DNA from: a virus
Lineage: Duplodnaviria > Caudoviricetes
IMG/VR virus record: IMGVR_UViG_3300013121_000033
Span: 32,001-96,000 of that record
Length of the DNA: 64,000 nucleotides
Reading direction: 5' to 3' (one strand)
The notes under the pieces are model-generated. The model ran no database searches, had not been told where the DNA came from, and worked only from the letters and a program-made list of their open reading frames with translations. Position 1 is the first letter of the stretch, and every line of letters starts with the position of its first letter. The position numbers and the translations under genes are program-made. Shown here one piece after another: positions 8,854-44,420 of this stretch.

Positions 8854-10317
8854 CTAGATCGTCTTGCGGATCATGGGCCGCTGGCCGGGCCGGTTTGGCT
8901 GGCCTCGGAGCCACTTATTGTGCATCGCGTTCGCAATGCGAGCGGCCTTCTCCTTGGTCATATGCCGCCGCTCCCTGAGGGCAGTGTAGACTGCCAACCA
9001 CTTAACACTTCGACAGGTCGCGGGGCTGCCGTGCAGGCATTTTTGGCGGCGGTTTTTGCGGCCGCGTTTGGATCGGGAGGGGCCGGGGGTGTCTGGTTTG
9101 CGGGGGTGTTGGATGTCGCCGATGACTTTGCCGGTGATGGCGGCGGTGACGGCGGGTTGGGTGGTGGGTTGGGTGTAGGCGGTGGTGATGTCGTTGGGGG
9201 TGTGCCAGCCGTGGCCGGGGATGGGGGCGAGGTGGAGGGTGGGGTTGCCGAGGGCGGCGGTGACGGCGGCGGTGGTGGGGTTGATCCATGCGGGGAGCAT
9301 GTTGGTGGCGCCGATGGCGTGGGCGCGGCGGCGGATGTGGGCTTCGACCTTGTCGCGGTGCTTGGCGCGTCCGATGGATTGGAGTGCTCGGCGGAGGTCG
9401 TCGCGGTTTCGGATGGGGTATGACCCGTCGGAGAGGGCGATGTTCTTGTCGGCGAGGGTGTCGCGTTCGGCTTGGGTGAAGGTGGCGGCGGTCATGCCGT
9501 GGCGGCGTTTGCGGCGGAGGGGGTGGGGACCGCAGACGGCGGTGACGCCGTCGTCGCGGGTGACGCGGGCGAGGCCGCACACCTTGCACCAGGGGCCGAG
9601 TTCGGAGGGGACGTGGGGGTGGGGGATGTCCTGGGCGTCGGCCATGGTGCCGTCGATGCCGAGGGCTTGGCGGAGGGGTTCGCCTTCTTCCTGTGCGGCT
9701 TCGGTGGTGTAGGTGTCGTCGAGGTCGGGTTCCATGTCGTCCATGTCCATGGCGCCCATGTCGTCGTCGTAGTCCGGGTGGTCGGCTTGGGTGAGGAGGT
9801 CGTCGATGTCGAACTTCGCGGCCGTCGGGTAGCCGTCGTCGAGGTCGAGGCCGGAACCGAGTTCGTAGACCGTCCAGTCGTCGCCGCGAACGAACGCGAC
9901 GGCGTCGAGCAGGATCGCGCCGTCGCCGACGGCTTCGGCGAGGTTCGCTGCCGGGAGGCCGTAGCCGACCGTGAGATGCGGGGTGAACGTCGGATACTTC
10001 TTGACGTCGTCGGGGAGCGGGGGGAGTTCCATGCGGGCACGGACGAACTCGGGGGCGTCGTCGAGGAACAGGACTTGCGCCGGGGGGGTGTCGTCCCCGA
10101 GTGGGCCGCTGTCGACGATCGTCGCGACGAACGGGTCGATCGACAGGGCGATGCGTTCCGCTGCGGCGTCGAGCGCGGCGGCGAGGTCGTCGTCGATGTC
10201 CTTGCCGTAGTAGCCGAGGGTGACGTGCTGCTGGTCGAACGGGTCGGCGCCGTCGACTTGGAGTTGCGACTCCTCCGACTCGGCGGGGATGAAGCAGATC
10301 ATCGCGGACTCGGCCAC
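8854..10317 (-). CDS. 2H phosphoesterase (2'-5' RNA ligase/Acb1-like) multi-module protein
   Basis: Two HxT motifs (QHVTLGY, PHLTVGY), then a DGSYPIRN...HIRRRA module and a C-terminal YTALR...KEKAARIAN module; GAGAGGA SD before GTG at 10317. Confidence 0.75.
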   Translation of the reverse strand: MAESAMICFIPAESEESQLQVDGADPFDQQHVTLGYYGKDIDDDLAAALDAAAERIALSIDPFVATIVDSGPLGDDTPPAQVLFLDDAPEFVRARMELPPLPDDVKKYPTFTPHLTVGYGLPAANLAEAVGDGAILLDAVAFVRGDDWTVYELGSGLDLDDGYPTAAKFDIDDLLTQADHPDYDDDMGAMDMDDMEPDLDDTYTTEAAQEEGEPLRQALGIDGTMADAQDIPHPHVPSELGPWCKVCGLARVTRDDGVTAVCGPHPLRRKRRHGMTAATFTQAERDTLADKNIALSDGSYPIRNRDDLRRALQSIGRAKHRDKVEAHIRRRAHAIGATNMLPAWINPTTAAVTAALGNPTLHLAPIPGHGWHTPNDITTAYTQPTTQPAVTAAITGKVIGDIQHPRKPDTPGPSRSKRGRKNRRQKCLHGSPATCRSVKWLAVYTALRERRHMTKEKAARIANAMHNKWLRGQPNRPGQRPMIRKTI

Positions 10318-10334
10318 GGTGGGTCCTCTCAAGG

Positions 10335-11264: not shown

Positions 11265-11297
11265 CTATCTCCCAACAAGGGTGGTCGCGACCGGCAC

Positions 11298-11319
11298 AGC
11301 GTAGGGTCTGGACGTGTCA
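11298..11319 (-). promoter_or_regulatory. Late-promoter motif TGACACGTCCA-N5-TACGCT
   Basis: One of seven copies, all upstream of head genes. Confidence 0.7.
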
Positions 11320-12675: not shown

Positions 12676-12678
12676 GCG

Positions 12679-16155: not shown

Positions 16156-18120
16156 TCAGGAGAAGTCGCAGTCGGCGGGCTCGACACCGTTGGCGCGGGC
16201 ACCGTTGGCGCACGCCGAGATGTCGATGGTCGCCGACGGCGAGCAGCCGGTCTTGGCGAGCGACAGCCACTCCTTCGAGAACCAGAGCTTCTTGTTCTGG
16301 CGGACCAGGTTGCCGTCGACCATCCAGCCCGTCGCCTGCTCGCCGGTCGCCGAGTACAGGTAGTCGGCGGGGGCGATGAGGCGGACCCGGTTCGTCGTCG
16401 GCAGCGCCGGGATCGAGTCGGCCGAGCCGCCCACCGTGGTGAGAGCGTCGAACGCACCCGACTTGAAGTCCCGGAGGAACTTCACCCGGACACCGGTCTG
16501 GTCCTCGATGTAGGCGACGAGTTCCGCCGCCCGACCGCGGGTCGTCTGGGCGAACACTCGACGGTTCTCGTCGTTGATGAGCCGCTTGATGTGACCCGGC
16601 TCCAACCAGAGGTCGTAGTCGCCCTCGTCCAGCCGCTCGCGGTACGTCAACTGCGGGAGCAGTTCGTTGACCGCGTCGATGAGGGCGACCAGGGCGCCGA
16701 CATCGGTGTAGGTCGCCGTGTACGGGTGGGCGGTGGCGTCGAACTTGGTCAGGAGGTACTGCTCACGCACCCGGGCACGCACGACGGCGAGCTTGTGCAT
16801 GAACTCCTCGACCCGCTCGGGCTGGCTGATCTCGGTCGAGTCATCGACTCGGGCCGAGGCGACCAGTTCCTCCGCCTTCACCGGGACGGCGTCGGCGCAG
16901 GTGATGTCGACCGTCGGCTTCCAGGTCGACGAGTCGTCGTCGTCGATGCCTTCCTGGTCGTCCTCGCCCCAGATCGCGACGCCGTCCTCGACCTCGTCGG
17001 ATGCGATCGCCGGGAAGTGCTGGAACCCGAGGCGACCGATCGGCCGCGACGGCAGCGAGTCCGCGAACGGCGAATCGACGATGCCGCACATCGGGATGTC
17101 CCGGAGGATGTCCAGCGGCTCGCAGATCGCGGCGGTCACGCCGGGGAGCGGCGCCAGACCGGCACGCTTCCGCTTGAACGCTGCGACCGTCTCGGCGATG
17201 AGGAGCGTCGCACGGTCCGGGCCGGTGTTGCGGTCCAGCACCTCGACCGGCATGTCGGCCGTGTCCTCGAACGGCTTGAGGGAGGCGATCACGCCGGAGA
17301 CGGCGCCGCCGCCGGGGCCGGGGCGGACGGACCGCACGGCCTCGATCATCTCGCCGATCTGGCCGTAGTTGACCTCCTCGCCCTGACGGACGACCGACTG
17401 GCCGCCCATGGCGACGAAGCTGGTGCGGGGCCGCTCGAACGCCGCGGCATCGGCGACCGGTCGACCGTCGGCGACGACGGCGGCGGTGACACCGGCCCCG
17501 GCCAACTCGCGGTCACCGGCTGCGTCGGCGGTGAATGCCTCGGCCTGGGCGACGGTGTCGGCCAGGGCGTCGGCGCTGGGCTCGTTGCTCTCGGGGGTCT
17601 GTGCCACCGTCGTCTCCTGCTCTGCGAGGGCACCCGCCGTGGGTGCCGTGGTGGAAGCATCCACCGTGGACGTGTCACCGCCCTGCACCGGGGCCTCGGC
17701 GGGTGCCTCGGCGACCGGAGTGGACGGGGCTTCTGCGACCTCGGCCGGGGCCTCGGTCACCTCGGTGGCCGCCTCCACCTCGGTGGGCGGCTCGGCCTCG
17801 GTCGCCTCCGCGGCGGCGTCGACCTCCGGCTCCACCTCGGCCTCGGCGACCGGCTCGACGAGGGCGACGTCCTCGACGATCTCGACGCTGCGCAGCTTGT
17901 TGATCGCTTCGGCGATCTCGTTGCGCTGCGCCTTGAGCGACTTCATCTGGTCGCTCCACTGCAACGTCCGCTTCTCGCCGTCGAGAGCAGCGATCGTCTC
18001 GGTCAGGCGGCCGTGCTCCGAGAGCAGGTCGTCGACGTCCATGGCGGTGAGGTCGAGAGCCTGGCCCTCGACCTCGGCGGCCTCCGTCGCGGCCTCGGCG
18101 TTCTCCGGGGTCTGGTCCAT
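16156..18120 (-). CDS. Major capsid protein (cluster-B-like 'hexamer' type) with long N-terminal propeptide
   Basis: GGAGGA SD; coiled-coil and acidic Ala/Glu-rich N-terminus; AAICEPLDILRDIP...DSLPSRPIGRLG...KPTVDITC core; late motif upstream. Confidence 0.75.
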   Translation of the reverse strand: MDQTPENAEAATEAAEVEGQALDLTAMDVDDLLSEHGRLTETIAALDGEKRTLQWSDQMKSLKAQRNEIAEAINKLRSVEIVEDVALVEPVAEAEVEPEVDAAAEATEAEPPTEVEAATEVTEAPAEVAEAPSTPVAEAPAEAPVQGGDTSTVDASTTAPTAGALAEQETTVAQTPESNEPSADALADTVAQAEAFTADAAGDRELAGAGVTAAVVADGRPVADAAAFERPRTSFVAMGGQSVVRQGEEVNYGQIGEMIEAVRSVRPGPGGGAVSGVIASLKPFEDTADMPVEVLDRNTGPDRATLLIAETVAAFKRKRAGLAPLPGVTAAICEPLDILRDIPMCGIVDSPFADSLPSRPIGRLGFQHFPAIASDEVEDGVAIWGEDDQEGIDDDDSSTWKPTVDITCADAVPVKAEELVASARVDDSTEISQPERVEEFMHKLAVVRARVREQYLLTKFDATAHPYTATYTDVGALVALIDAVNELLPQLTYRERLDEGDYDLWLEPGHIKRLINDENRRVFAQTTRGRAAELVAYIEDQTGVRVKFLRDFKSGAFDALTTVGGSADSIPALPTTNRVRLIAPADYLYSATGEQATGWMVDGNLVRQNKKLWFSKEWLSLAKTGCSPSATIDISACANGARANGVEPADCDFS

Positions 18121-18711: not shown

Positions 18712-19335
18712 TCAGCCCCGTGGGTTCGCTGCGATCTGCTTCGCCTGCCAGCGTGACGCTTCGTCAGCGGCGCGTTCCCACATCGGGTAGATCGGGTCGC
18801 TCTGATCCGGGCTCGGGCCGAACATCTTCGCTGCGAACGCCGACGGGGCGAGGGTCGAATCGGCGTTCGCCTGGAACGACGCGACGACCGCGGCCTGTGC
18901 GTCGGTGTCACCGTTGACGGCAGCCCCGACAACGGACTCGGTGAGCCCGGAGGGGAACACGACATCGGGGGGTGCGGTCAGCGACGCGATGACACCGACC
19001 TTGCGTTCGATCCGGTCCAGGTGCGCTTCGAGCACGTTGAGCGCCGCGGTGACTGCTTCGGTCGAGACGTACGGTTCCGGTTCGAGGTTCACGTCGACTT
19101 CGCCGTCGGCGTACACGGACGACAGGAGCTTGAACGGGACCGCTTGTGCCGGGTCCTGCGTCTCCAACCACACCTGTGTGTCGTCCTCGGGTGGGTCGGC
19201 GGAGTACGAGAGCAGCTTGCCGTCGGGGGTGACGGCTGCGACGTAGACGTCCTGAACGGCTTGAGCGTCGGCGGCTGTCGTAGCGACGTCCGTCAGGTCG
19301 TTGGGGTCCCCGGGGGCGGTGTCCTGCGGTTCCAC
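18712..19335 (-). CDS. Head-associated protein sharing its N-terminal domain with 19686-24131
   Basis: VYVAAVTPDGKLLSY...LEPEPY...VTAA; leaderless GTG after the late motif. Confidence 0.65.
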   Translation of the reverse strand: MEPQDTAPGDPNDLTDVATTAADAQAVQDVYVAAVTPDGKLLSYSADPPEDDTQVWLETQDPAQAVPFKLLSSVYADGEVDVNLEPEPYVSTEAVTAALNVLEAHLDRIERKVGVIASLTAPPDVVFPSGLTESVVGAAVNGDTDAQAAVVASFQANADSTLAPSAFAAKMFGPSPDQSDPIYPMWERAADEASRWQAKQIAANPRG

Positions 19336-30713: not shown

Positions 30714-33700
30714 GGTGCAACTCCGGGGGCTGCGGCGGGTGCGCCGGTGCCGATGATGTTGGTGTTCATCCAGTCGATGAGGGCTTGGGCTTCGGGACCG
30801 AAGTCGGACGTATCGCCGCCCAGGGCGGCGGCTGCGAACGCCTCAGCGAACCCTTCCTGCGCGTTCTCGTTCGAGTAGAACGAGATGAACCGGCGCTTCA
30901 TCCGCGACAGACGATCTCCCGAGCCGCCCCAGGCGTTCTCCCATTCCGATGTGTACGCGGCGTGGTAGCGGTCCCACAGCCGTTTCCATTCGTCGGCGAG
31001 CGGGGTGCCGACCCACCCCACGTCGGAGATCGAGTCGTGGACGTAGTGGCCGGTTTCATGGGTGAGGACAGCGCGGCGGTCCGGGGTTTCGCTGCCTCGT
31101 AACCATCCGACGGTGGTGACGTCGCCGATATCGAACCGGTCCCCGCGGACGTTCACGGCGATCGGGTCGCCGCCGATCTCGCGACGCGAGTTCAACCACA
31201 CCGTCCCCGAGCCCTGCTGATAGTTGGCGGTCGCCGGTTCGTGCTCGGGATCGCGCCGGTAGCTGACGATGAGTCGCGGCTGGTCGATCCCGAGTCGAGC
31301 GAAAGCTTGTTGGACTCGATCGTTCGCCATCGCTTCACGCCAGTCGGACTCGACATCTGCGATGACAGCCGGGTCGAGTTCGCTGTCGATGATCGGTGGG
31401 CTTTCACGCCACCGCCGTTCGCGGCTCTTCCCTTCGAACCGTTGCCGCCACTTCTCGAACTCGCGGGCGATCACATCGGGGTCGCGACGGTAGAACGCGA
31501 GCGCCAACTGTTCGGTATCGGTCAGCTTGTAGCCGCGGGCTTCGCGCCACAGTGCGGTACCGATCAGGCCGTCGCGGCCCGACAGAGCGTTGCGTTCCTC
31601 GGGGGTCATCGCTTCGATCTCGGCGAGGCGTTCCGGCGGGTGGCTGTCGAGGAGCGATTGGACACGGACGAGCGCGACGGACTGTGCATCCGACGCGGGG
31701 CGGCCGCGGTCGGCCCACAGGTCGGTGCCGTCGGCGACGAGCTTCGCGACGTCGGCTTTCTTGAGGCGCTTTGCGGCAGGCGTCGTGCGGGGCGGGACGG
31801 GTGGCGGGTCGGGACGGAGGTTGAGGACACCGTCCCACGCGCCGACCCCGGACTTCATGATGTCGGGATGGATGGTCGCGACTTCGTAGGGGGTGATGTC
31901 GGACGCGTCGAGTGGTTCCCCGGCGTCGAACTTTGCTCGCACCTGTTCGACCCGGTCCGCCATGGCGTCGTCGCCCGCGGCGCGGAGGTGACGTCCGATT
32001 TCGCCGAGCGACGAATGGTGGGTGGGGTCCCAGTCGAACCCGGCGCGCGCCCAGGTGTAGCCGCCGTTCGCGCCGAGGTTCGGGTCGGAGACGGCGTACA
32101 CGGTGACCTTGTCGACCCCGGCTGCGAGGTAGGCGTCGAGCGACGCGGCGAGGAACCGGGTGCCGATCCCTTGCCCCTGGTGGGCGGGGTCGATCGCCAG
32201 GTCGATCTGGTAGGCGGTCGCTGCGCCGTCGCTGTCGATGTAGAAGCTGCGGTCGAACTGGCCGACCTCGACACCGTCGCTGTCCTCGATCACCCCCGAG
32301 ACGACGAGTTGCCCGTTCGACAACGTCGCTTCGGTCACCTTCGACCGGACGCCGTCGCCGAGGTCGTGTTCGAGTAGCGACCTCGCCAACGTCTCGGCGT
32401 GCGCGGTGCGTTCGTGGCCGAGATCGACACCCTTGTAGTCGTTGAGACTGTCGACCGGGCCGACCGCTTGGGGGAGGACCGCCCGGAGGCGTGACTCGAT
32501 GGCGCGTTGTTCGTTCTCGGGGTTCGCCGGGGCTGTCTGGTTCGCGGCGGGTAGCCACTCGCGAACCCGGTTCCACCAGCGGTCACCGTCGTTGGTGCGG
32601 TAGCCGGGGTCGACTTTGGCGTTGGGGTCGGTCGCGGCGAGCGTGTAGGCGAGGAGCGCGTCGGCGGCCTGTTCGCCCCGGTGGCCTGGGTCGACTTCGA
32701 CCATGCGGATCGCGAGTTCGCCGTGGCCGGACGTGTAGTCGAGGTAGCCGATCGGGTCCCCGGTGACCGTGTCGTTCATCACGTAGGACGACAGGTAGTA
32801 GCCGTCGATCGAGTCGCCGCCCGACGAGACGACAGTGACCGCTCGCCCATTCGGCAGCTTGAACGCCGAGACGGGTTCCTCCCAACCGGTGACGGGGTGC
32901 GGGGGTTTCGTCGGCCACGGCTCACCGAACTTCGGGGTCGGCAGGTCGATGCGTTCGTCGGCGAACCCGGAGGGCGGCTCGGGCTTGACCAACGGGATAC
33001 GGTCGCGTAGCTCCCGTTCCAACGCCGGGTCGATGGGGGCGGACGGCGACTCGGGGGCGGCGGCGAGTTCGATGTCGCCGTACGCAGTGAACTCTGCGCC
33101 CTTCGGGTAGCCGCCCGGCTCGTCGCCGGTGAGATGCCCGAGGGACACCGCGCCCCGGGCGGAGACGGCTCCGTCGGCGGTGCGGGTGAAGCGTTGACCG
33201 ATGCGGTCCTCGAACTCGGCTCCGACCGGCAGGTCGGCGATGCGGTCCTGACCGAACTTGGAGCCGCCCGGGATCACGTCGCCGACGGGGCGGGGGGTGA
33301 CGGTGCGGGCGGCGTCGGGGACGGGGAGGCCGTGGCGGTCGGCCTGGTCGATCACCCACTGGTGGAGGGCTGGTTGGTGGTCGACGAGCCACTGCGGGTT
33401 GGTGTGCAGAAGCGCGTACGCTTCGGCGGTCATCTCGTCGGGATTGTCGTGGGACGGAATCCACGACGGCCCATCGGTCAGACGGTTGTAGGCGGCCTGC
33501 TTGTCCGCTGCCGGGAGCATGGCGTCGAGGACGTGCCCGGCTTCGTGGTACAGGGTTGCCCGGCGGGTTTCGGGGGGGCTCGACCAGTAGTCCGGGCTGA
33601 CCCGCAGGTAGACGTTTCCGTCGCGGTGCTCGTAACTTGCGTGGGCTCGTGCCCCGGGTTGAAGCCACCCGGGTGACCGCCCTGCGGCAACATCGGCCTG

Positions 33701-34234
33701 GTCGTATTGCCACGGGCGTGTCGTTTCCCAGTCGGCGATACCGAGGCGAGCGATGTCGGGGCGGAACACGTCGGCACGTTCTTGGTCCGCGGTGCGGGAC
33801 AGGGTGGGGGGGTGCCAGTTGCGGACCTCACGGAACCCGGCATCCCAAGCGTTGCGGTCGGGGCCTGCGATTGCGGGACGGTCCCCGAACGCTTCTACGG
33901 CCCACCGGGTGTCGTCGCGGAGCCCGGTGTCCCATCCGGGGGTGGAGCGGTAGTGGTCGTCGAGCAGCCTCCTGATCTCGGATCGGGCCTGGCCGTCGCC
34001 GCGGAGTAGGCGGCGGAGCAGGTTGAACGACACGAACCCGCGGGGCGCGAACTGGCCGTTGCCGGGGTCGTGCCAGTTCCCGAGTTCGTCGAGGCCGCCT
34101 TTCGCTTCGTCCTCGACGCGGCGGCGGACAGCGGCGGTGACAGGAGCGAGCAGGTCGATGACGTCGCTGAGCGGGACCCCGGCGGCGAGAAGAGCGGCCC
34201 TGCTAGCAGCGTAATCAGGGGCCGACGTCGACAC
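30710..34234 (-). CDS. Giant polyvalent protein 2: shared leader, zincin, two GNAT domains, C-terminal zincin
   Basis: HEAGH..EMTAE; VDPGHRGE; HQGQGIGTRF; HETGH..EGFAEAF; likely GTG start at 34234. Confidence 0.75.
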   Translation of the reverse strand: MSTSAPDYAASRAALLAAGVPLSDVIDLLAPVTAAVRRRVEDEAKGGLDELGNWHDPGNGQFAPRGFVSFNLLRRLLRGDGQARSEIRRLLDDHYRSTPGWDTGLRDDTRWAVEAFGDRPAIAGPDRNAWDAGFREVRNWHPPTLSRTADQERADVFRPDIARLGIADWETTRPWQYDQADVAAGRSPGWLQPGARAHASYEHRDGNVYLRVSPDYWSSPPETRRATLYHEAGHVLDAMLPAADKQAAYNRLTDGPSWIPSHDNPDEMTAEAYALLHTNPQWLVDHQPALHQWVIDQADRHGLPVPDAARTVTPRPVGDVIPGGSKFGQDRIADLPVGAEFEDRIGQRFTRTADGAVSARGAVSLGHLTGDEPGGYPKGAEFTAYGDIELAAAPESPSAPIDPALERELRDRIPLVKPEPPSGFADERIDLPTPKFGEPWPTKPPHPVTGWEEPVSAFKLPNGRAVTVVSSGGDSIDGYYLSSYVMNDTVTGDPIGYLDYTSGHGELAIRMVEVDPGHRGEQAADALLAYTLAATDPNAKVDPGYRTNDGDRWWNRVREWLPAANQTAPANPENEQRAIESRLRAVLPQAVGPVDSLNDYKGVDLGHERTAHAETLARSLLEHDLGDGVRSKVTEATLSNGQLVVSGVIEDSDGVEVGQFDRSFYIDSDGAATAYQIDLAIDPAHQGQGIGTRFLAASLDAYLAAGVDKVTVYAVSDPNLGANGGYTWARAGFDWDPTHHSSLGEIGRHLRAAGDDAMADRVEQVRAKFDAGEPLDASDITPYEVATIHPDIMKSGVGAWDGVLNLRPDPPPVPPRTTPAAKRLKKADVAKLVADGTDLWADRGRPASDAQSVALVRVQSLLDSHPPERLAEIEAMTPEERNALSGRDGLIGTALWREARGYKLTDTEQLALAFYRRDPDVIAREFEKWRQRFEGKSRERRWRESPPIIDSELDPAVIADVESDWREAMANDRVQQAFARLGIDQPRLIVSYRRDPEHEPATANYQQGSGTVWLNSRREIGGDPIAVNVRGDRFDIGDVTTVGWLRGSETPDRRAVLTHETGHYVHDSISDVGWVGTPLADEWKRLWDRYHAAYTSEWENAWGGSGDRLSRMKRRFISFYSNENAQEGFAEAFAAAALGGDTSDFGPEAQALIDWMNTNIIGTGAPAAAPGVAP

Positions 34235-34426: not shown

Positions 34427-34738
34427 TCAGGTGGGGATGCGGGCCTCGCGCCAGGCGATCACCGTCGGGTACACGACGGGTTCGGTGTCGGTGATGACGC
34501 CCTTGTACTCGGACAGGTTGACCGGCAGGAACGTCTCCGGGTCGAACGGGTCGGCGTCGCGTGCGGTGAAGATCAGGGGATCGTCGGAGATGTCATCGAG
34601 GTACCGGCCGACGGGGTGACCGTCGGCGTCCTTGCCGATCTCGACGACCGGACGCTGGTCACCCCACTCTTCGTACATCTGCGTGTACTCGCCGTACTGC
34701 CAGGTGCCCTCAGGGTTGGTTGGGTCGAGCGGCCTCAT
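34427..34738 (-). CDS. Small acidic protein (candidate immunity)
   Basis: ATGA overlap with giant gene 1; same 24-bp junction as 24426-24449. Confidence 0.6.
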   Translation of the reverse strand: MRPLDPTNPEGTWQYGEYTQMYEEWGDQRPVVEIGKDADGHPVGRYLDDISDDPLIFTARDADPFDPETFLPVNLSEYKGVITDTEPVVYPTVIAWREARIPT

Positions 34739-37700
34739 GGCGCCACCGTACCCGCCGCTGCGGCGTCTCCCATCGCTGCGACGTCCACGGGGGCGTCCGG
34801 TGCGTCCGGTGCGCCACCTCCGATGCCGGGAAGCTGCGGGGTGAACGGTTGCGTTGTCGGCGTGGAAGGTTCAGCGATCGGGACGTCGACAGGTCGGACC
34901 GGGCGGATGTAGTCGAGGAAGTACGAGAACGCCTGCTCGGCTTCACGGCTGTACCCGCGGCGACGGTGGAACTTCGGGTGGGTGACCGTCGTGTAGAACT
35001 CGGCGATCAACTCGGCGCGGTTCGTTGCCGCATAGCGTGACACCTCAGCGATGACCGACTGGTTGTCGAGGACGTACTTGATGAACCGTTCACGTTCCCG
35101 GCGGCGGGTGTGTTCGAGTTTCCCGTCGATGACGTGGCCGAACTCGTGGCGGACGAGGCCGGTGACGGAACCGTCCGCCGAGAACGTCCACTTCCGTTTC
35201 GTCGCGTCGTCGAGGAACACTCCGTCGGGCACCATGCTTTTCGCGATGGGGCCGTCGGCGGGGTCGCCGATCTCGACGATCTCGTCGCCGACTTTCGTTC
35301 GGCTGCGTAGCAGTTCCGAGACGGCCGCCCACGCCGACGCGTCCGATTCGGCGCGTGACTTGTTGAACCCGATGACGGACGTACCGGTGACAACAAACGC
35401 GATCGTGTTCGGGTCGACGCCGTGAGAGAAGTAGCCGAACACGGGGGCGCCGAAGCTGTCGACCTGCGCGGCGAGCATCGGGCTGGACGCGACTGCTTCG
35501 GCCCATGACGCCATGGCGAGGTCGTGGTCTGCTGTCGCTTCGCTCCCGAAGCGGGCTCCGAACTTGTCGACCCAGAAGTCGGACAGCCCGGCCTTCTTGA
35601 ACTGTCCCGACCCGATCTGGTCGAGACTGTTCGCGGACTGCGCTGTCGGGAACGCTGCCCCGTCAGCGAACGCGTCGATGAGCCGCTTCCGAAGCTGGGC
35701 TTCGTCCATCCCAGCGTGGAGCAGGTTCCGCTGAGGCGGAGTCAGGTCGGAGGTGGCTTCGTGGCCGACGGCGATCTGGACGTCGGACCAGTTGAAGTCG
35801 GGGTGTTGAGCGAGAGCGGTGAGGACGGCAGTGGCGATCTTGTCGACGGCGGCGGTGTCGTCGGTGACGAGCCCGTTGCCCTTGATCTGGTCCGGTTCGG
35901 GGATCGCCGCGAGGATCGCCGAGGTGACGTCGGGTCGCTGTGCTGCAACGCGGTTGGTGCGGAGTTGGTCGGTGACGCGTTCGGCGAAGTCGATGAAGGC
36001 CCCGAGGCCGCCGACCTCGTAGCCGTTCTGGACTGCCATGAGGTCCGCGTCGGTGAACCCGTCGAGCGGCGGGAACGCTCCGATCGCAGACCCGAACTTG
36101 CGTGGTTGCGCCCCCATCGACTCTTGGAGCAGGTCGAGGTAGGCGATCGTGCTGCCGATCCGGTCAAGCGCGATCTGGTCGCCGCCGCGGGCGATGGCGA
36201 TGAGGTCGGGGAGGGTGGTTTCGAGGGTGCGGTTGAACTCGTCGAGTGCTGGACGGTTCCATCCGCCTTCGAGGCCGAGGGCGCGGGCTTCGGCGACGAG
36301 GTCCGCTGCCCGTTGGGTGGTGCGGCCGAATCGTTCGAGTCGCGCCGCTGTCGCCGCGTCGCTTTCCACGGTTCCGGTGCGGCGGAGGGCGTAGCGGATG
36401 GTGCCGACCTTCTTGCGGGCTTCGCCGATCTGGCCGAGAGTGACGTTCGGGTCGCCTGCCTGCCAGCGGGCTTCGAGGGTGCGGGCGACTGCCGTAGCAC
36501 GGTTCGCCCAATCTCCGGCGGCGAGGTCCGCTGCGGACATGTTGTAGGAGCGGACGTCGAGAACGGCTTGGAACTCGGAGGCCAGAACGTTGGGGTCGAG
36601 GATCAGCCCGGTGGGGTCGATGTCGGGGGCGTCGGGGATGGCGACGGGTTCGGTGACCCCTTCGTAGCCGTACTCTGCGAGACGTTCAGCGATCTGAGCG
36701 TCGAGTGCTTTGCGGGTCTTGGGGTCGAGGGTGTCGCGTTTCTCTGCGGCGTAGTTGAGCAGTGCGTTGACGGCGAGTGCTTTGCGTCGCTCGGAGGTGC
36801 CGGACTGGAAGTTCGAACCGCGGCCGTTGCGAGTGATTCGGGCTGCTGAGCCCCCCCACTCGAACGACTGCGAGTCGGTGCCCTTCATGATCTTGGCGTC
36901 CCAGATTCCGGTCTTGCGGTCGCGGCCGACGACGACATTCGAACCGCCCTTGTAGGAGCGGGTCACGGAGAGGCCGTCGGGGAGGAGGACGGTGACAGTC
37001 GACGACTCGGGGTTGAGGGTGTAGATGATCTCGGGTGACGCGTACCGGTCCGTCGAGTACGGGGCCGGTTCGCGCCATGCCGCGGTCGAGTCGTCGAACC
37101 CGGTGTAGTCCAGCGACGCCGTATCTGGCAACGGGTCCGGCCCGTTCGGCACGTCGACTGGTTCGTCGGGTTGTGACGGGGTGACCGCGAGGGTGGTGTC
37201 GGCGCCGACGAGGTCACGGAACGTGTCGTAGGGGATCAGGGTGCCGGACCCGGAACGGACGCCGTCGGATTCTGTCGTGTAGGTCGTCCCGGACGGCATC
37301 GTGACAGTCGATCCCAACGGGAAGTCGCGGAGGCCGTCCGGGGTCGACGGGCGCGTCTCGGGGACGTCCGGGTTGGGGGCGTCCGGTTCGGGGACCGGGG
37401 CGGCGAGGTTCGCTGCGGTCCATCCGTCCTGCCACGCCTTGAGAACGTCGATGTTGGACCCGACCTCCGGGTTGAGGACCAGGTTCTTGTCGAGGGCCGG
37501 GGCGTTCGTCTTGCCATCCCGGTATGCCTGCGCGCCGAGTTGGCGGGCCTCTTCGACCGTCGTGAACGGACGGTCCGGCACTTCCAGGGCCTCGGGGACG
37601 TCCGGGGTGGTGTCAGGGACGGAGTCGACGATCCACCGGTCGCCCCGAAGGCCCTGGCTGATCGCCCCCCACCCGTCGGCCGGGGGTGACCAGATGTCGC

Positions 37701-40113
37701 CTGAGCCAACCTCCAACTGGCCGGAGTCGCCGACACGGAACGTCGTGTTGGGCAGGTCGGTGTTGCGAAACGTCGCCCCCGGGGGAAGTTCACGCAGCTT
37801 CCACGGTGGGATCGAGTCGCCCGCGTTGAACTCGGTGGATGCGTCGGGGGTGACGGGTGCTGCCGGTGCGACGTTGCTCGCGTCGGGAGTGTTGACCGCT
37901 GTCAGGTTGGAGACGTCGTAGTTCGTCGGGTCCCACCACGCCTTGTCGTCGTCGTAGAGCGCCTGGACCTGGTCATGCAGGCTGTCGTCGAGAGTCGAGT
38001 AGACGTTGCCGTCCTTGACGAGGTACATGCGACGCTGCTTCGTGAGCCGCCCGTACTCGTCGATGTTCTGCCACTGGAACTCGTAGAACCCGTCCTCTTG
38101 GAAGTTCGGTCGGACAGCCCAACCGCGGACTGCGCCGGAGCCGCCGATGTCGACCGTCGCCCGTTGCGACACGACGCCCTTCGACACGAAGTCGCGGGAG
38201 AACCTGCCAGTCGACCAGTCGCCGCCGTCGATCTTCGCTAGGTACGTCTTGGCCGTCGGCGCCTTTTTCGTGAAGATCGTTGCGATCGGAGCGATCGGCT
38301 TCGGTTCCTCGGGGGCGGCAACGTCGATCCCCTCGGCAACCCCTTTCGCTTGCGCGTCGGTGACAGCAGCGGCGAGGGCGTCACGGATGAACCCGGTGTT
38401 CGACGATGGCCCCTCGGTCGGGTCCTCGGTGGGGTTGAGGGAGCCGTACTCGGAGATGCCGCGGCCTTCGTTCCGGATCGTCCAGTCGGCCGACGTCCTG
38501 AACGGTGTCGATGTCGAGTAGCCGACGTTGCGACGGTCGAGTTCGAGCGTGGCGTCGACTTCGATCTTCGTGGTGGTGCCGTCAGGCTCGGGGATGTCGA
38601 GTGTGTAGGTGTCGGTGCGGGACTCGATCCACCGGCCTGGCTGCGACCCGACCCGTTCCCGGTCTGTGCGCCCCTTCGCCACGCTCCACCCGAGCGGCGA
38701 TGACGGTGTCGCGTCGGGTTCGGGGATGCCCGGTTCGGTGGCGGGCATCTTGTTCTTCTCGGGGAGCCATTCCTGGACGCGCTCCCACCACTTTGCTCCG
38801 TCCTCGGTCAATACGCCGGGGTTGACCTTGAGGTCAGGGTTGTCGGCGATCGTTCGCGCCAGGAGCACGTCCCCGACTTGTTCACCGTGGAACCCTGGGT
38901 CGGCTTCGACCATCCGGATGAACAACTCGCCGTCGCGGCTGCTCGACGTGTAGTCGAGGTACCCCATCCGGTCACCTGACGCCGCGTCGTACATGGCGTA
39001 GGACGACAGGTAGTCGCCGTCGATCGAGTCACCGCCGACGCTGCGAATCTCGACCTCACGGCCGGAGGGAAGCAGGACCCGGCTTTCCGGTTCGCGGTAC
39101 CCGGTCACCGGGTGCGGCGCGGCGGTCGGCCAGTCCTGACCGAGCGTGACCTGTGGGCGGTCCGGCTTGGTGATCGTGGGAACGTCCGGTTCTGGCGAAG
39201 GCGCCGTCGCTTCGGGGACGTCGGGGGTGGGGGCTTCGGGGGGCGGGTCGATCGCCCAACCGTCGCCGTCACGGCGCGGGACGTTGTCGGTGAACCTGGC
39301 CCACGCCGCTTTGATCTCGCGGCCGTCGCCGGTCGTGACGAGCGCAGAACGGTCGTCGGAGTATCGGACGTGGACGATGTCGCCCTTTGCGATCCCGTAG
39401 CGGGCGAGGTACCCGTCGGCGACTTGTGCCGGTCCGCCCTGGTCGCCTGCTTCTTTCAAGCGGGTAGCGGTGAGCGCACCGACACCGACCTTCGTGGCAG
39501 TCGTGTTGCCACGTTGCTGTGGCCGGTCGATCCGAGCGTGGGTGTCGTCCGCTGCGAAGTCGGCGAACCTCCCCCACTTCACCCGGTACTCGGACCGGCG
39601 CCCTTCGGTGTCGAACACGTCAATGATGCCGTGTTGGTCGTCGCCGAACCGGACTCGAACCGCTTGGCCTTTTCCGATCCCGAGCCGGGACAAGTAGTTG
39701 TCGCGTGCGACGAGCCAGTCACCGTCCGGCTTGCCTTTGACGTGATCGACAGCGAACAGGGACCGCATCGCTTCCAACGCGAGCGCTTTCGCCGTCGACC
39801 ACCCTGGCTTTGCGAACTCTCCGGAACCGGGGTCATGCCAGTTCCCGATGTCGTCGAACCCGCCGAGGGTGCCGTCATCGGGGACAGCGCGGCGCACCTT
39901 CCGTGCTGCGGCGGTGACGCCGGGCTGTTGCGACGGTGACCCGACCGGAGGGTTCGGGTCCGGGTCGGTCGGGTGCATCGGCATGTCGACCTGCACGTCG
40001 GAGATGCGCGCCAGGATCATCTCGGCGAGGACCGCCTCGATCTGGTCGAGTTGTTCTTCGAGCGCGTCGACCGCGCCGATGAGATCGACGGTCGACTCGT
40101 TGTCGGCAGCCAT
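34735..40113 (-). CDS. Giant polyvalent protein 1: shared leader, two SH3-like repeats, GNAT, unknown domains, C-terminal zincin
   Basis: ATG at 40113 directly after the protease stop; IRMVEADPGFHGEQVG; HEFGH..RYAATNRAELIAE. Confidence 0.75.
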   Translation of the reverse strand: MAADNESTVDLIGAVDALEEQLDQIEAVLAEMILARISDVQVDMPMHPTDPDPNPPVGSPSQQPGVTAAARKVRRAVPDDGTLGGFDDIGNWHDPGSGEFAKPGWSTAKALALEAMRSLFAVDHVKGKPDGDWLVARDNYLSRLGIGKGQAVRVRFGDDQHGIIDVFDTEGRRSEYRVKWGRFADFAADDTHARIDRPQQRGNTTATKVGVGALTATRLKEAGDQGGPAQVADGYLARYGIAKGDIVHVRYSDDRSALVTTGDGREIKAAWARFTDNVPRRDGDGWAIDPPPEAPTPDVPEATAPSPEPDVPTITKPDRPQVTLGQDWPTAAPHPVTGYREPESRVLLPSGREVEIRSVGGDSIDGDYLSSYAMYDAASGDRMGYLDYTSSSRDGELFIRMVEADPGFHGEQVGDVLLARTIADNPDLKVNPGVLTEDGAKWWERVQEWLPEKNKMPATEPGIPEPDATPSSPLGWSVAKGRTDRERVGSQPGRWIESRTDTYTLDIPEPDGTTTKIEVDATLELDRRNVGYSTSTPFRTSADWTIRNEGRGISEYGSLNPTEDPTEGPSSNTGFIRDALAAAVTDAQAKGVAEGIDVAAPEEPKPIAPIATIFTKKAPTAKTYLAKIDGGDWSTGRFSRDFVSKGVVSQRATVDIGGSGAVRGWAVRPNFQEDGFYEFQWQNIDEYGRLTKQRRMYLVKDGNVYSTLDDSLHDQVQALYDDDKAWWDPTNYDVSNLTAVNTPDASNVAPAAPVTPDASTEFNAGDSIPPWKLRELPPGATFRNTDLPNTTFRVGDSGQLEVGSGDIWSPPADGWGAISQGLRGDRWIVDSVPDTTPDVPEALEVPDRPFTTVEEARQLGAQAYRDGKTNAPALDKNLVLNPEVGSNIDVLKAWQDGWTAANLAAPVPEPDAPNPDVPETRPSTPDGLRDFPLGSTVTMPSGTTYTTESDGVRSGSGTLIPYDTFRDLVGADTTLAVTPSQPDEPVDVPNGPDPLPDTASLDYTGFDDSTAAWREPAPYSTDRYASPEIIYTLNPESSTVTVLLPDGLSVTRSYKGGSNVVVGRDRKTGIWDAKIMKGTDSQSFEWGGSAARITRNGRGSNFQSGTSERRKALAVNALLNYAAEKRDTLDPKTRKALDAQIAERLAEYGYEGVTEPVAIPDAPDIDPTGLILDPNVLASEFQAVLDVRSYNMSAADLAAGDWANRATAVARTLEARWQAGDPNVTLGQIGEARKKVGTIRYALRRTGTVESDAATAARLERFGRTTQRAADLVAEARALGLEGGWNRPALDEFNRTLETTLPDLIAIARGGDQIALDRIGSTIAYLDLLQESMGAQPRKFGSAIGAFPPLDGFTDADLMAVQNGYEVGGLGAFIDFAERVTDQLRTNRVAAQRPDVTSAILAAIPEPDQIKGNGLVTDDTAAVDKIATAVLTALAQHPDFNWSDVQIAVGHEATSDLTPPQRNLLHAGMDEAQLRKRLIDAFADGAAFPTAQSANSLDQIGSGQFKKAGLSDFWVDKFGARFGSEATADHDLAMASWAEAVASSPMLAAQVDSFGAPVFGYFSHGVDPNTIAFVVTGTSVIGFNKSRAESDASAWAAVSELLRSRTKVGDEIVEIGDPADGPIAKSMVPDGVFLDDATKRKWTFSADGSVTGLVRHEFGHVIDGKLEHTRRRERERFIKYVLDNQSVIAEVSRYAATNRAELIAEFYTTVTHPKFHRRRGYSREAEQAFSYFLDYIRPVRPVDVPIAEPSTPTTQPFTPQLPGIGGGAPDAPDAPVDVAAMGDAAAAGTVAP

Positions 40114-40118: not shown

Positions 40119-41072
40119 TCAGCCGAGCGGGAGGGCGGGCAGGTCGAACCCGAAGTCGTTGTCGGCGCTGTACGGGGTGACACCGGAACCGCCGCACGAC
40201 GGGCACCCTGCGCCGCCGCAGTCGTGGTGGCCGTAGACCTCCATGAAGAGGCTGTTGTCGAAGTCCTCGTCGGAGATGGCGACATCGGGGATGAGGTCAG
40301 CGACGAGGCTGGCCGTGACGGCTTCGAGCGCGGCGATCCGGTCGCCGAGTTCGGAAACGGGTGCGATGGGCTCCCACATGCTGTACCAGACCTCTTCGCC
40401 GGTGGTTGGGTCGAGTGCGGCGGTGACGGCGAACCGGTGGTCGAGCCGTTCCTTGCGCAGCAGCCGGGCGCCTGGACGGAACCCGGGGTTGTTCACCAAC
40501 TGTGCGCCGGTGAACTCGTGGTGGTTGAGCGACGGGATGTGCCGCCAGTCGCCTGACGTCGCACCGGACATCATCGAGATCGCATCCCACAGGGTGCGGC
40601 CCGGTTCGACAACCCCGAGAGCCATGAGGCCGACACCGGGGACGTCGTGGTAGCGGACGCGCATCTGCCGGAGCGCGGTGTCGGCGTTGTAGTGCTCGGC
40701 CGCTTCGACGGGGGACACGGACGGGTCGCGGACGACATGGGAGATCGCCCCTGCGATCGCCGCGGTTCGGATCGGTCGACCGTCGTCGCAGACCGTCTGG
40801 CCGACGTGGGAGAACTCGTAGTTCGTGACGGACTTTGGGGCGGGCCAGCAGCGGCCCGTGGGGGAACCTCCGAGAACGCATTCGCCCTCGGGTGCGACGA
40901 GGACCGCGACTCGGCCGGTGTCGGGGCCGTTGAGCTTGATCTGGATGAGGGCGCCGTCCTCGTCCCACCAGTCGGGAATCTCGTAGAACCAGTGGGCCGG
41001 GGGGAGGTGTGGGGCGGCCAGTGGAGCGTTGAGGTCCGGGACGGTCGAGGTGTCCAGCAGCACGTCGCTCAT
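40119..41072 (-). CDS. Capsid maturation protease (cluster-B-like actinophage type)
   Basis: PPAHWF..GRV..C..P.S..Y..G..AEHY..SGDWR..VNNPGF pattern; position after the portal. Confidence 0.7.
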   Translation of the reverse strand: MSDVLLDTSTVPDLNAPLAAPHLPPAHWFYEIPDWWDEDGALIQIKLNGPDTGRVAVLVAPEGECVLGGSPTGRCWPAPKSVTNYEFSHVGQTVCDDGRPIRTAAIAGAISHVVRDPSVSPVEAAEHYNADTALRQMRVRYHDVPGVGLMALGVVEPGRTLWDAISMMSGATSGDWRHIPSLNHHEFTGAQLVNNPGFRPGARLLRKERLDHRFAVTAALDPTTGEEVWYSMWEPIAPVSELGDRIAALEAVTASLVADLIPDVAISDEDFDNSLFMEVYGHHDCGGAGCPSCGGSGVTPYSADNDFGFDLPALPLG

Positions 41073-41079
41073 GGGTGAC

Positions 41080-41101
41080 ATCTTGACGGGTGGACGTGTC
41101 A
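41080..41101 (-). promoter_or_regulatory. Late-promoter motif TGACACGTCCA-N5-CAAGAT
   Basis: 7 nt before ATG at 41072. Confidence 0.7.
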
Positions 41102-41132
41102 TCTATCCGCCACAGCCCCCCATGTCAGGCAT

Positions 41133-42044: not shown

Positions 42045-42068
42045 CGACCATAGCCGCGCTGCATCCTG

Positions 42069-44420
42069 CTAATCCACAACCCACCTAAGAAGCACAAGAC
42101 ACTTACAGCCGCCGTGGTCGTTAGGCATGTATGGGGCGATTTCGCTGTACTTCGTGAACTCGCGGCCGTGGAGGGCGACGTGGGGGGGGAACGGGACTTC
42201 GGGTTCGCCGAAGTAGCCGTGGTCCCATTGCATCGTGAACTTCCCGGGGAGAAGGGTCACGGTGTTGTGGCCGGTGAGGTGGCCGGTGTTGCCCTTCCAT
42301 TCGCCGCCGGTTGAGGGGCGGGGCTGGTTCGCTGCGTTCCGGACGAGGGCTCCGCCGACAGCGGTCTGTGCGCCACCGGCGACCATCATCGTGGAGCGGA
42401 CGATGTTCAACGGGGTTTTGATCCCCTTGAACGACCCCTTCGCGACGCGGGTGGTGAGCCAGTCGGCCATGGCGGCCGAGTGGTGCGCGGCGGCGTTCGC
42501 GGCGAGCAACGCTGCGACGGTACCGATGAGCGGCCCCCACTTGGCCCAGAACCCTTCGTGGGCGTCCGCGATGACCTGTTCGACCTGCGGCTGGTATTCG
42601 GCGACAACGTCAGCGATGACCCCGTCGACGCCGACCTGCTGGCGTTGCGCTGCGTCGGCTTCGGCCCACAGCATCTCGAACGACTTGGACCGTGCCGCTT
42701 CGCGTTCGACGCTGCCACGGGGGAAGGTGGTGACGAGACGGCGGGTCAGTTCAGCGGTGACCGCGGTCGTCATCGCCGCAGTGAGCGCGGTGAGAGCGGC
42801 TTCGGTGCGGAGGTCGTGCTTCGATGCGTCGTCGTAGACGGCGTTCGGGTCGTAGCCGAGGTCGTCGAGGGTGACCGCGGCGGTGACCGCTGGCATCGGT
42901 GGTTCCTGGATGTTCGTGTCGCCGTTCGGGGTGCCGGGGGTGCCGGTCGGCGACCCGAACCCGGGAGGGAGGCCAGAAGGTCCCGCCGGGAGCGCGGGCG
43001 GTTCCGACGCGGTCGCCTCGATCGCATCCGGGGCTGCGCCGCCGCCGGTGTCGGGGACGATGACCTGACCGTCCTCGTCGACCTCGACGTACGGCGCGCC
43101 CTTCGAACCGGTCGACAACTCCCAGAACTCGAACTCGGAGAGGCCGTCGGGGAGCGGCATGACGGGGATACCGAGTTCGCGGGCGACGTCCTCACGGGAG
43201 ATGACGCCCGCCTGCCACGCCGCCATGAGGTCGGCGAACATCGACGGCCGCTTGAGTAGGAACTGCATGTCCCACTGGACACGCACCTTGCGCGCGTCGT
43301 ACCCCCAGCCTTCCAAGTGCTCGTTCATGGCGCGAACCCGGTCCTGGAAGTACCAGCGGGTCAGTTCCTTCACGAGCGGGTTGAGCTTCGGTGCGAGGCC
43401 CTGCTTCACCTGGGATTCTTGGAGCAGGAACTCGTTCCAGTGGTTCGCTGCGCCCGGTCCTTGGGTGAGCAACTGCTCGGGGAAGTTCACGGCACGAGCG
43501 ATCGCGGCGGTCGCCTTGTCCTCGACTTCCAAGATCAACGGGTCGAGGTCACGTCCGATCTCGACGTACTGCGCGGGCTTCCCGATGTACGGGTACGGGA
43601 GTGTGGCCGCCGGGGAGTCGTCGTTGCGGTACGACTCCTTGCCGTGACGGAGGTAGTCGTCGACGATCTGGTCCATCGGTTCGAGGTCGTCCTCGCCGTC
43701 GGGGTCCGGCTTGAACGGGCGGGCACCCTTGCCGGTTTCGTCGCCGGGATCGAACGCCATCATGCCGTTGAGGACGAGGCGACCGTTGATCGTGCGGGTC
43801 TGCGAACGGACCGCGGCGCGGAGGCGGCGCAGGTCTGAGAGCGCCCGGCACACCGGCGAGTACGGCTTCCACTGTTCGTAGGGGTCGGGGAACCACGACA
43901 TGAACACGCGGCCGCGGAGCGGGGTGCGGCGCTGGCGGCCCCACAGGTCCGTCCAGGTGAACATCTCCTGGTCGGCGTTCCCGGAGAGGGTGACGTTGTA
44001 GCCGGTCTGCTGGTCGGCGATCAGCCAGCAGCGGCCGATGCTTTCCCGGGCGCGGACGTAGGTGAACATCAGGTCCGACTGGTCCTGCAACTGGCCGCGC
44101 CACCCGGCGATGATGACTTGGAGGACGGGGTCGTCGGAACGTTCCCAGCCGTCGGCTGAACCCTTCCCGGTGAACACCTCCGGGTACAGGGGACACAAGC
44201 TCGCCATGAAGGCGATGGTGTCGAGGTAGTAGCCGAGGACGCCGGGACCGTGCCGGTCGAAGTCCATGACTTGCCGTTGCCACTGGACGGGCTGGCCGCC
44301 AGATAGTTGCGAGCCGCGGGGTCGGGCCGCGACAGGGGCGAGGGCTGCTGTGACGCCCTCGATGGGGTCGCCGGAACGGCGGCGTTCGGGAGTCGTGGGC
44401 CTCCGGGGTTCCACGGCCAT
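42069..44420 (-). CDS. Portal protein fused to a C-terminal MuF/head-morphogenesis-like domain
   Basis: GAGAGG SD before ATG at 44420; portal-like core (PYSPV, RLVLNG, NHW); C-terminal W.H..H..LHG..P.DHGGCKC. Confidence 0.7.
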   Translation of the reverse strand: MAVEPRRPTTPERRRSGDPIEGVTAALAPVAARPRGSQLSGGQPVQWQRQVMDFDRHGPGVLGYYLDTIAFMASLCPLYPEVFTGKGSADGWERSDDPVLQVIIAGWRGQLQDQSDLMFTYVRARESIGRCWLIADQQTGYNVTLSGNADQEMFTWTDLWGRQRRTPLRGRVFMSWFPDPYEQWKPYSPVCRALSDLRRLRAAVRSQTRTINGRLVLNGMMAFDPGDETGKGARPFKPDPDGEDDLEPMDQIVDDYLRHGKESYRNDDSPAATLPYPYIGKPAQYVEIGRDLDPLILEVEDKATAAIARAVNFPEQLLTQGPGAANHWNEFLLQESQVKQGLAPKLNPLVKELTRWYFQDRVRAMNEHLEGWGYDARKVRVQWDMQFLLKRPSMFADLMAAWQAGVISREDVARELGIPVMPLPDGLSEFEFWELSTGSKGAPYVEVDEDGQVIVPDTGGGAAPDAIEATASEPPALPAGPSGLPPGFGSPTGTPGTPNGDTNIQEPPMPAVTAAVTLDDLGYDPNAVYDDASKHDLRTEAALTALTAAMTTAVTAELTRRLVTTFPRGSVEREAARSKSFEMLWAEADAAQRQQVGVDGVIADVVAEYQPQVEQVIADAHEGFWAKWGPLIGTVAALLAANAAAHHSAAMADWLTTRVAKGSFKGIKTPLNIVRSTMMVAGGAQTAVGGALVRNAANQPRPSTGGEWKGNTGHLTGHNTVTLLPGKFTMQWDHGYFGEPEVPFPPHVALHGREFTKYSEIAPYMPNDHGGCKCLVLLRWVVD

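Follow-up and report, generated by a model that had tools for sequence, protein, structure and literature searches.

A VTAA tetrapeptide in the head proteins of a large tailed phage as a candidate cleavage code of its prohead protease

Processing of many head proteins at a short sequence motif is known from the phages T4, phiKZ and SPN3US, where the cut always falls after Glu. For phiKZ gp175 and SPN3US gp245, many head, inner-body or ejection proteins are reported to be processed at S/A/G-x-E or A-x-E motifs, and the motif can serve to predict which proteins are head proteins (PMC5694885, PMC10052503, PMC7411985). The assemblin of pseudorabies virus, a herpesvirus protease, cuts after Ala and before Ser or Thr, at YLQA-T in its R site and VQA-S in its M site (PMC4498786). 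Here we analyze a 64,000-nucleotide stretch of phage DNA (the window), comprising bases 32001-96000 of the single 225,159-bp contig (68% GC) of IMG/VR virus record IMGVR_UViG_3300013121_000033. In this window the tetrapeptide Val-Thr-Ala-Ala (VTAA) recurs in the proteins of the head module, and we consider it probable that VTAA is the form taken in this phage by the substrate code of the prohead protease that the phage itself encodes at 40119-41102.

The head module lies on the minus strand and runs from 44420 to 8854, in the order portal, HNH endonuclease, prohead protease (327 residues), four giant proteins (giants 1-4, with 1792, 1174, 2095 and 1481 residues), a scaffold-like protein of 207 residues, the major capsid protein and, later, a 2H-phosphoesterase. 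The protease gene is located between the portal and major capsid genes, as is typical of prohead proteases of tailed phages, and L005, a 210-kb contig of a related phage whose protease is 52% identical, has its genes in the same order. (L002, L003, L005, L007, L008, L009 and L018 denote loci of related phages; L012 is a locus of the phage's own genome.) Judged by portal and protease, the closest cultured phages are those of Mycobacterium, Microbacterium, Gordonia, Streptomyces and Tsukamurella, so that the host is probably an actinobacterium; with identities of only 23-34%, the phage is a distant and far larger relative of the known actinobacteriophages.

Distribution and conservation of the tetrapeptide

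A preliminary description of this DNA had listed twelve VTAA sites in the head proteins and read them as a protease cleavage code. All twelve are found at the positions it gave, on the minus strand and in frame with long open reading frames (ORFs). Counting VTAA in head versus non-head ORFs against composition, as that description proposed, shows a clear enrichment in the head module: 12 copies occur in 10,979 residues where composition predicts 0.88 (Poisson P = 2e-10), none of 5,000 within-protein shuffles reached 12, and VTAA is the top-ranked tetrapeptide of the module by enrichment, with AVTA second and GVTA third. The remaining genome holds 16 copies in 55,802 residues and is thus 3.8-fold poorer (Fisher P = 9e-4), and the difference grows to 11-fold when the preceding residue is included ([GA]VTAA: 11 in the head module versus 5 elsewhere, P = 5e-6). 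PHROG and Pfam annotation gave no virion link for the non-head proteins that carry [G/A]VTAA. The tetrapeptide had been said to occur in almost every head protein; this is true of every large protein from the portal to the capsid, but not of the small ORFs, nor of the proteins of 309, 306 and 325 residues encoded downstream of the capsid gene.

The sites are placed in Pro/Gly-rich linkers and at domain junctions, and within residues 32-97 of all four giants. The residue after VTAA is L, V, I or A in every case, and Pro/Gly-rich sequence comes before most of the sites, so that the extended form in this phage is [G/A/P]-V-T-A-A-[L/V/I/A]. Judged from this phage and its relatives, the recognised unit would be roughly [G/A/P]-[V/I]-[T/V]-Ala-[Ala/Ser/Gly]-[hydrophobic], with H, R, K or M as the first residue in other lineages.

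The clearest evidence of conservation comes from the major capsid precursor (16156..18120, minus strand; 654 residues; phrog_777 major head protein), which consists of a coiled-coil N-terminal part, a middle part and a C-terminal shell domain of ~324 residues. We compared it with 34 metagenomic homologues of 33-56% identity. Site 1 (residues 211-214; 17479..17490) lies within a variable, gap-rich region, and even so its third-position Ala is kept in 33 of the 34 homologues, the fourth position is G, S or A in 32 of 34, and the preceding residue is A, P, G or S in all 34. Site 2 (residues 328-331; 17128..17139) opens the conserved shell domain (…AICxPLDI…): here Ala is present in 35 of 35 sequences, followed by A in 34 and S in one, and preceded by A, G or P in all 35, and the segment just before it varies in length by up to ~50 residues. 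The pattern of the capsid family as a whole is [A/G/P]-[V/H/R/M/I]-[T/V]-A-[A/S/G]-hydrophobic. A cut at the second capsid site was expected to leave about 323 residues, and indeed 323-324 residues would remain.

The first residue of the motif varies, and it does so in concert. At capsid site 2 it is V or I in 23 sequences and H or R in 11, and a maximum-likelihood tree of the shell domain requires at least 2-3 switches between the V/I and H/R classes. Site 1 tracks site 2: in the V/I class it has V in every row, and in the H/R class the ten rows aligned there have H, M or G. The same residue classes appear in other proteins of the relatives. In L003, where the capsid sites read HVAS and RVAA (the protease is not in the locus), the giant's leader carries RVAG, 14 residues before a W-x-D-P-G-x-G-x-F...G-W-S domain; in L018 (capsid not in the locus), the self sites of a protease-giant fusion are KTAA and RVAS, and two neighbouring giants carry RTAA, again 14 residues before the domain. 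The L009 locus (protease not in the locus) combines VTAG and VTAA in the capsid with VTAG in the giant's leader, and L005 has VTAA, ITAA or VTAS at the junction of portal core and C-terminal domain, at the end of the protease, at residue 53 of the giant, in the scaffold-like protein (aligned) and in the capsid. A common reader acting in trans would be expected to produce such joint changes in unrelated proteins, which are hard to explain by each protein's own structure or ancestry alone.

The protease and its counterparts in other systems

The prohead (capsid maturation) protease (40119..41102, minus strand; 327 residues) comprises a protease domain (residues 1-225) and a C-terminal tail of ~100 residues. 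A profile of residues 1-229 retrieved 2,909 cluster representatives, and tblastn matches fall under genes named 'capsid maturation protease' in cultured actinobacteriophages (28-34% identity). Neither the protease of the window nor any of 75 family members matched a Pfam model, even at E ≤ 1 and including the Peptidase_S21, S77 and S78 models, and a profile search gave no meaningful sequence match in the PDB. Given these negative results alongside the match at the level of fold described below, the protease is a separate sequence family within the assemblin fold class.

In an alignment of 75 diverse family members (A4), only His122, Gly163, Ser183 and Val203 are invariant. His122 (codon 40737..40739) and Ser183 (in SGDWR; codon 40554..40556), both codons having been checked, are the sole invariant polar residues and occur in the order His then Ser, which fits the assemblin-fold prohead serine proteases (herpesvirus S21, T4 gp21 S77, HK97 gp4 S78); from this pattern of conservation we infer that they are the catalytic histidine and serine. 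An AlphaFold2 (AF2) model of the domain built from the 75 sequences reached a predicted local distance difference test (pLDDT) score of 90 and replaced a model of the whole protease from 5 sequences (pLDDT 32). When it was compared with 48,161 solved chains, the top match was T4 gp21 (5jbl; Z 6.6 over 125 residues, root-mean-square deviation 3.6), followed at ranks 2-4 by the proteases of varicella-zoster virus (VZV; Z 5.0), human cytomegalovirus (HCMV; 4.2) and KSHV, the Kaposi's sarcoma-associated herpesvirus (3.2), with unrelated chains next at Z ≤ 2.8. A Foldseek search of the PDB gave no significant match (best E 0.2), and its weak top matches were herpesvirus proteases. The model thus supports a serine protease of the T4-gp21/herpesvirus-assemblin fold type.

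The protease also carries the tetrapeptide itself, at the end of its domain (residues 226-229; 40416..40427), where the closest homologues have [F/Y]A-[V/I]TA-[A/S]. Across the family the pattern [VIMLKRH][TVAIM]A[ASC] follows within 45 residues of the last conserved block, the QLVNNPGFRP anchor, in 52 of 59 members, versus 20% of control windows; the A-[S/A/C] present in 52 of 52 of these matches follows from the construction of the pattern, and the consensus is F-A-[V/M/I/R/K]-[V/T/A]-A-[S/A]. A VTAA directly after the protease domain has the layout expected of a self-release site, which we predict it to be. In many family members the protease is fused to the N-terminal end of a protein of 850-3,200 residues, and in some to the C-terminal end of a portal (among P0040-P0071); the protease-giant arrangement needs a release site. 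These protease-giant and portal-protease fusions recall the protease-scaffold fusion of herpesviruses. A VTAS in the tail (residues 262-265; 40308..40319) is a weak candidate for a second self site, being unconserved in a five-sequence alignment. Near its end (window 40119-40200), the tail also has a Cys-rich C-G-G-x-G-C-x-x-C-G-G-S-G block and then D-F-G-F-D-L-P-A-L; both blocks are conserved in two of the four aligned homologues (P0036, P0038), and they could be a zinc knuckle and a capsid-binding tail.

It is instructive to compare this system with those described. T4 gp21 (MEROPS S77), the best structural match, is likewise one protease acting on capsid, scaffold, itself and internal proteins with N-terminal leaders that end at the motif. 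However, T4 cuts after Glu (L/I-x-E), whereas the conserved residue here is Ala and no Pfam S77 match was obtained; the leaders here are also longer (30-100 residues) and sit on proteins of 1,200-2,100 residues. With the jumbo phages phiKZ and SPN3US this phage shares its large size and a short motif common to many head proteins, but their motifs end in Glu, where the present one has Ala, and the phage is unrelated to them, its portal and capsid being of the actinobacteriophage type. At none of the 12 sites or their counterparts is there a conserved Glu, so that the Glu before the cut that marks the T4 and phiKZ systems is missing.

The herpesvirus assemblin/pUL26 precursor (MEROPS S21) is in several respects closer. 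Three herpesvirus proteases (VZV, HCMV and KSHV) are among the four best structural matches, and the predicted code has the same form: Ala before the cut, a small residue after it and a hydrophobic residue two positions earlier (V-T-A↓A versus V/L-x-A↓S, the arrow marking the bond). In both cases the protease domain ends, on its C-terminal side, in a self-release site (in the phage, a predicted one) with a tail behind it, and relatives of the phage protease are fused to large internal proteins. There are also differences. The phage protease has neither detectable sequence similarity to assemblin nor a Pfam S21 match; its family has a single invariant His, so that a Ser-His-His triad is not evident; in some phage lineages the residue two before the Ala is basic; and the setting is a tailed phage of a probable actinobacterial host, with predicted substrates that extend to the portal, the enzyme-bearing giants and the capsid protein itself.

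Among cultured phages, the Mycobacterium KayaCho/Julie1 group, Microbacterium Gina, Gordonia Evaa and Tsukamurella TPA2 have the same protease family and capsid precursors of 630-672 residues; the cultured counterparts of the capsid protein are annotated 'major capsid hexamer protein'. KayaCho and Gina have LTAA directly before the conserved GWCAPSE block with which the shell domain of the capsid protein starts; their protease domain is followed by LVAS, and their portals have LTAA/LVAA near the N-terminus (residues 21 and 47). Because the same motif class recurs in these two phages, the code appears general for the family. Unlike the phage studied here, these actinobacteriophages have genomes of 53-71 kb without arrays of giant proteins, and begin the motif with Leu in place of Val. 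For phages with this protease, no cleavage motif or N-terminal sequence is reported in the searchable literature, where papers on cluster J and cluster O mycobacteriophages concern HK97-type proteases. A structural survey states that it is not possible to predict where the delta domain of actinobacteriophage capsid proteins is cleaved off (bioRxiv 10.1101/2022.09.09.507160).

Alternative explanations and predicted processing

The same observations could be read in other ways. Chance and shared ancestry would produce them if an Ala/Val/Thr-rich proteome with a favoured VTAA peptide happened to contain paralogous giant N-termini, with no function in common. Ala does make up 12% of residues, VTAA is over-represented outside the head module as well (about 3-fold over expectation), and 5 of the 12 sites lie in related N-terminal regions. 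Yet the roughly nine sites that are independent are still far above the 0.88 expected, sites in unrelated proteins are kept at 33-56% identity while their flanks diverge, and changes of the first residue are coordinated from site to site and from protein to protein; chance is therefore very improbable as an explanation. Even less credible is a signal at the level of DNA, a 12-nucleotide word on the minus strand (GTC ACC GCC GCN) serving in binding, methylation or recombination, with the peptide as a by-product. The preliminary description had noted that the codons vary, and synonymous variants do occur at every position, though less freely than it claimed (GTC 9, GTG 3; ACC 11, ACA 1; for Ala, GCC 9 and three others at the third position, and four different codons at the fourth). 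The word GTC-ACC-GCC recurs in 7 of the 12 sites, but its dominance is as expected from the preferred codons of a 68% GC genome. Furthermore, every site is read in a single frame of coding sequence, translation of the remaining five frames yields VTAA just 9 times across the whole window, and in relatives the peptide pattern persists although residues and codons differ. Since codons vary synonymously and it is the peptide, not the nucleotide word, that is conserved in relatives, we rejected this reading with near certainty.

The most serious competitor, although still unlikely, accepts that the motif is recognised but holds that the prohead protease does not cut it: VTAA would serve for docking or targeting, as a tag that the scaffold, the portal or the capsid interior reads, or would be cut by another protease, from the host or of the M78 type. 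If the tagged proteins all bound a common partner, their enrichment, conservation and co-variation would be accounted for just as well. Elsewhere in the genome there is a gene for an M78-like peptidase, and in the staphylococcal phage 80alpha a host protease trims capsid and scaffold proteins. What argues against a tag is the placement and form of the motif. Across ~2,900 protease clusters, the place where it is best conserved is immediately behind the protease domain, protease-giant fusions included; an invariant Ala followed by A, S or G is typical of a scissile bond and fits the assemblin rule; and capsid site 2 lies exactly where a delta or scaffold domain is normally removed.

A code read by the phage's own prohead protease, with a specificity other than Glu as the preliminary description had proposed, is thus supported by the conserved position of the motif, the concerted change of its first residue, the copy after the protease domain and the fold of the protease. 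Several observations weigh against it. VTAA is ~3-fold above composition outside the head module too (16 versus roughly 5 expected), so that the P value computed from composition is too favourable. The sites of the four giants align with one another in paralogous N-terminal regions and are non-independent; since, in addition, the 207-residue protein has LEPEPY in common with giant 4, the number of independent sites is ~9, not 12. A test for enriched exact tetrapeptides in the partial head modules of six relatives, where the code is degenerate and the samples are small, gave no single motif, only Pro/Thr repeats. Some individual sites also fit poorly: the N-terminal site of the portal aligns with QTAA in the nearest relative, L005, the L007 giant and the third giant of L018 have no canonical site, and the sites of the 2H protein are not alignable column by column with those of its L008 homologue. 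The structural Z-scores are modest (below 8) and give support for a fold class, not proof; the exact scissile bond rests on analogy; and the searchable literature yielded no experimental N-termini for any phage with this protease family.

Taking these points into account, we infer that cleavage takes place at the VTAA sites. The preliminary description placed the cut after the tetrapeptide. The recognised unit would be wider and more degenerate than the VTAA it named, and the bond is most likely the one inside the tetrapeptide, V-T-A↓A, between the invariant Ala and the next small residue, by analogy with assemblin, which is of the same fold class and cuts after Ala before Ser or Thr. Processing inside the assembled prohead could then proceed as follows. 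The protease would free itself of its C-terminal tail of ~100 residues, giving a free domain of ~228 residues, and would remove the scaffold-like N-terminal 213 and/or 330 residues of the capsid precursor to leave a shell subunit of ~324 residues. It would also cut the scaffold-like 207-residue protein, trim the N-terminus of the portal and separate the portal core from the MuF-like domain, remove a leader of 30-100 residues from each of the four giants, and cut the 2H-phosphoesterase protein twice in its linker. Carriers of the tetrapeptide are therefore predicted to be head-internal or head-associated proteins, and the leaders of the giants would target them to the head.

The giants resemble the polyvalent proteins of phages and conjugative elements, giant multi-domain proteins proposed to be packaged and injected, possibly after proteolytic processing mainly by internal peptidase domains (Iyer et al. 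2017, PMC5512222). Like these, the giants are encoded in the late/head region, have domains of the GNAT and Zeta-toxin types and are associated with a MuF-like domain, although giant 1 has no recognised domain. Unlike these, each giant here has an N-terminal leader ending in the motif of the prohead protease, and in relatives the protease itself is fused to a giant. Their sequences fit polyvalent proteins that would be packaged and ejected.

More broadly, an uncurated prohead-protease family of actinobacteriophages and uncultured jumbo relatives may keep a herpesvirus-type specificity for Ala followed by a small residue, with the first residue tuned by lineage (V/I/L or K/R/H); transferable N-terminal leaders that close with the code could then serve generally to bring giant polyvalent enzymes (GNAT, Zeta-kinase, helicase, topoisomerase), together with the 2H-phosphoesterase, into the head for injection. 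We put this forward tentatively, with somewhat less than even confidence. If it were true, sequence would suffice to list the packaged effectors, and to place every mature terminus, in thousands of phages. For the protease code itself, what is new is an Ala plus small-residue specificity predicted for a family of ~2,900 clusters that has no Pfam model and, in the searchable literature, no described specificity. If correct, it would allow the boundary between delta domain and shell to be placed in actinobacteriophage capsid proteins; it would provide a list of head-internal proteins from sequence alone, with the four giants and the 2H-phosphoesterase as candidate injected counter-defence factors; and it would add another functional link between phage and herpesvirus capsid maturation.

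Proteins carrying the tetrapeptide and neighbouring genes

The portal protein (42069..44420, minus strand; 783 residues) matches phrog_776 portal over its core (E 5.6e-26). Its ATG at 44420 is preceded by GAGAGG and agrees with the start of the L005 orthologue. The first VTAA (residues 23-26; 44343..44354) is the one aligned with QTAA in L005; the second (42876..42887) lies in a Pro/Gly-rich linker between the portal core and the C-terminal MuF-like domain, and is identical and aligned in the L005 portal (PPPPPA-VTAA). The MuF-like nature of that domain, part of the preliminary description, comes from a single line of evidence, a language-model feature search of an atlas in which Phage_Mu_F clusters made up 27 of 30 matches for the last 268 residues, and is best treated as a lead. 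Between the portal and protease genes an HNH endonuclease gene is inserted (41133-42044; Pfam HNH_3, phrog_826); L005 has no gene there.

Giant 1 (34735..40113, minus strand; 1792 residues; the ORF could start at 40206) has no Pfam domain. Its N-terminal region is common to the other giants and to giants of related phages, and its VTAA (residues 66-69; 39907..39918) lies 26 residues upstream of a conserved WHDPGxGxF..GWS domain. Giant 2 (30710..34234; 1174-1222 residues, depending on the start) has GNAT acetyltransferase domains (Pfam Acetyltransf_1, E 1.9e-10) and VTAA at 34130..34141, which is residues 32-35 of the short form and 80-83 of the long form. Giant 3 (24426..30713; 2095 residues) also has a GNAT domain (Acetyltransf_1, E 1.2e-9), with VTAA at residues 56-59 (30537..30548), while giant 4 (19686..24131; 1481 residues) has a Zeta-toxin-like kinase domain (Pfam Zeta_toxin, E 1.3e-15) and VTAA at residues 72-75 (23907..23918), just preceded by LEPEPYQPG. 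All three are encoded on the minus strand as well. In giants with a recognisable W[HRN]DPxxGxF..GW domain, the motif occurs at most 40 residues upstream of it in 7 of 8, versus 4.6% expected from the rest of the same proteins (P = 4e-9). A search with the giant N-terminal region returned only itself and the L005 giant. Giants of related phages have Zeta_toxin, UvrD helicase and Topoisom_I domains (L002, L008, L018). The 2754-residue giant of L002 is probably called too short, as the conserved N-terminal domain and an ITAG lie in frame upstream of its start (L002 612-876).

The giants are alike at their other ends too. The C-terminal tails of giants 1-3 are Ala/Pro-rich and similar (...AAAAGTVAP, ...AAAPGVAP and ...AAAGTVAP; window 34735-34800, 30710-30760 and 24426-24480), and giant 4 ends in ...GPAAPAG; these tails may be a second shared signal.

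The scaffold-like protein (18712..19335, minus strand; 207 residues, or 247) is encoded just upstream of the capsid gene and has no family match; orthologues are present in L005 (381 residues) and L009 (177 residues), and its presumed role is that of a scaffold. Its VTAA (residues 95-98; 19042..19053) is aligned with VTAA in L005 and VVAA in L009. For the N-terminal part of the capsid precursor itself, a profile search of the PDB returned designed helical bundles only. In a search for close relatives of the capsid protein, tblastn against phage genomes gave no match, and a pattern scan of IMG/VR found none with the single protein and one locus with the alignment. The L005 capsid precursor (P0003; L005 19114-21036) has an insertion of ~35 residues before the shell domain, with an extra VTAS and ITAS.

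The 2H-phosphoesterase (LigT-like) protein (8854..10317, minus strand; 487 residues; Pfam 2_5_RNA_ligase2, E 3e-8) has a C-terminal DUF7218 and two copies of VTAA, at residues 352-355 (9253..9264) and 390-393 (9139..9150). Its L008 homologue (8213-9658), encoded immediately upstream of the capsid gene, shows KVAS at residue 342 and RIAA at residue 367, in the same part of the protein. If packaged in the head, this protein would be a candidate injected nucleotide-signal or RNA-repair enzyme.

Outside the window, a 711-residue protein without a family match (genome 137981-140116; L012) has G-VTAA at residue 51, in the style of the giants' leaders, and may be one more protein packaged in the head, with a gene that lies apart from the head module. 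Near the head module of a relative's contig lies an OrfB_IS605/Cas12f-like TnpB gene (L003 19161-19907).

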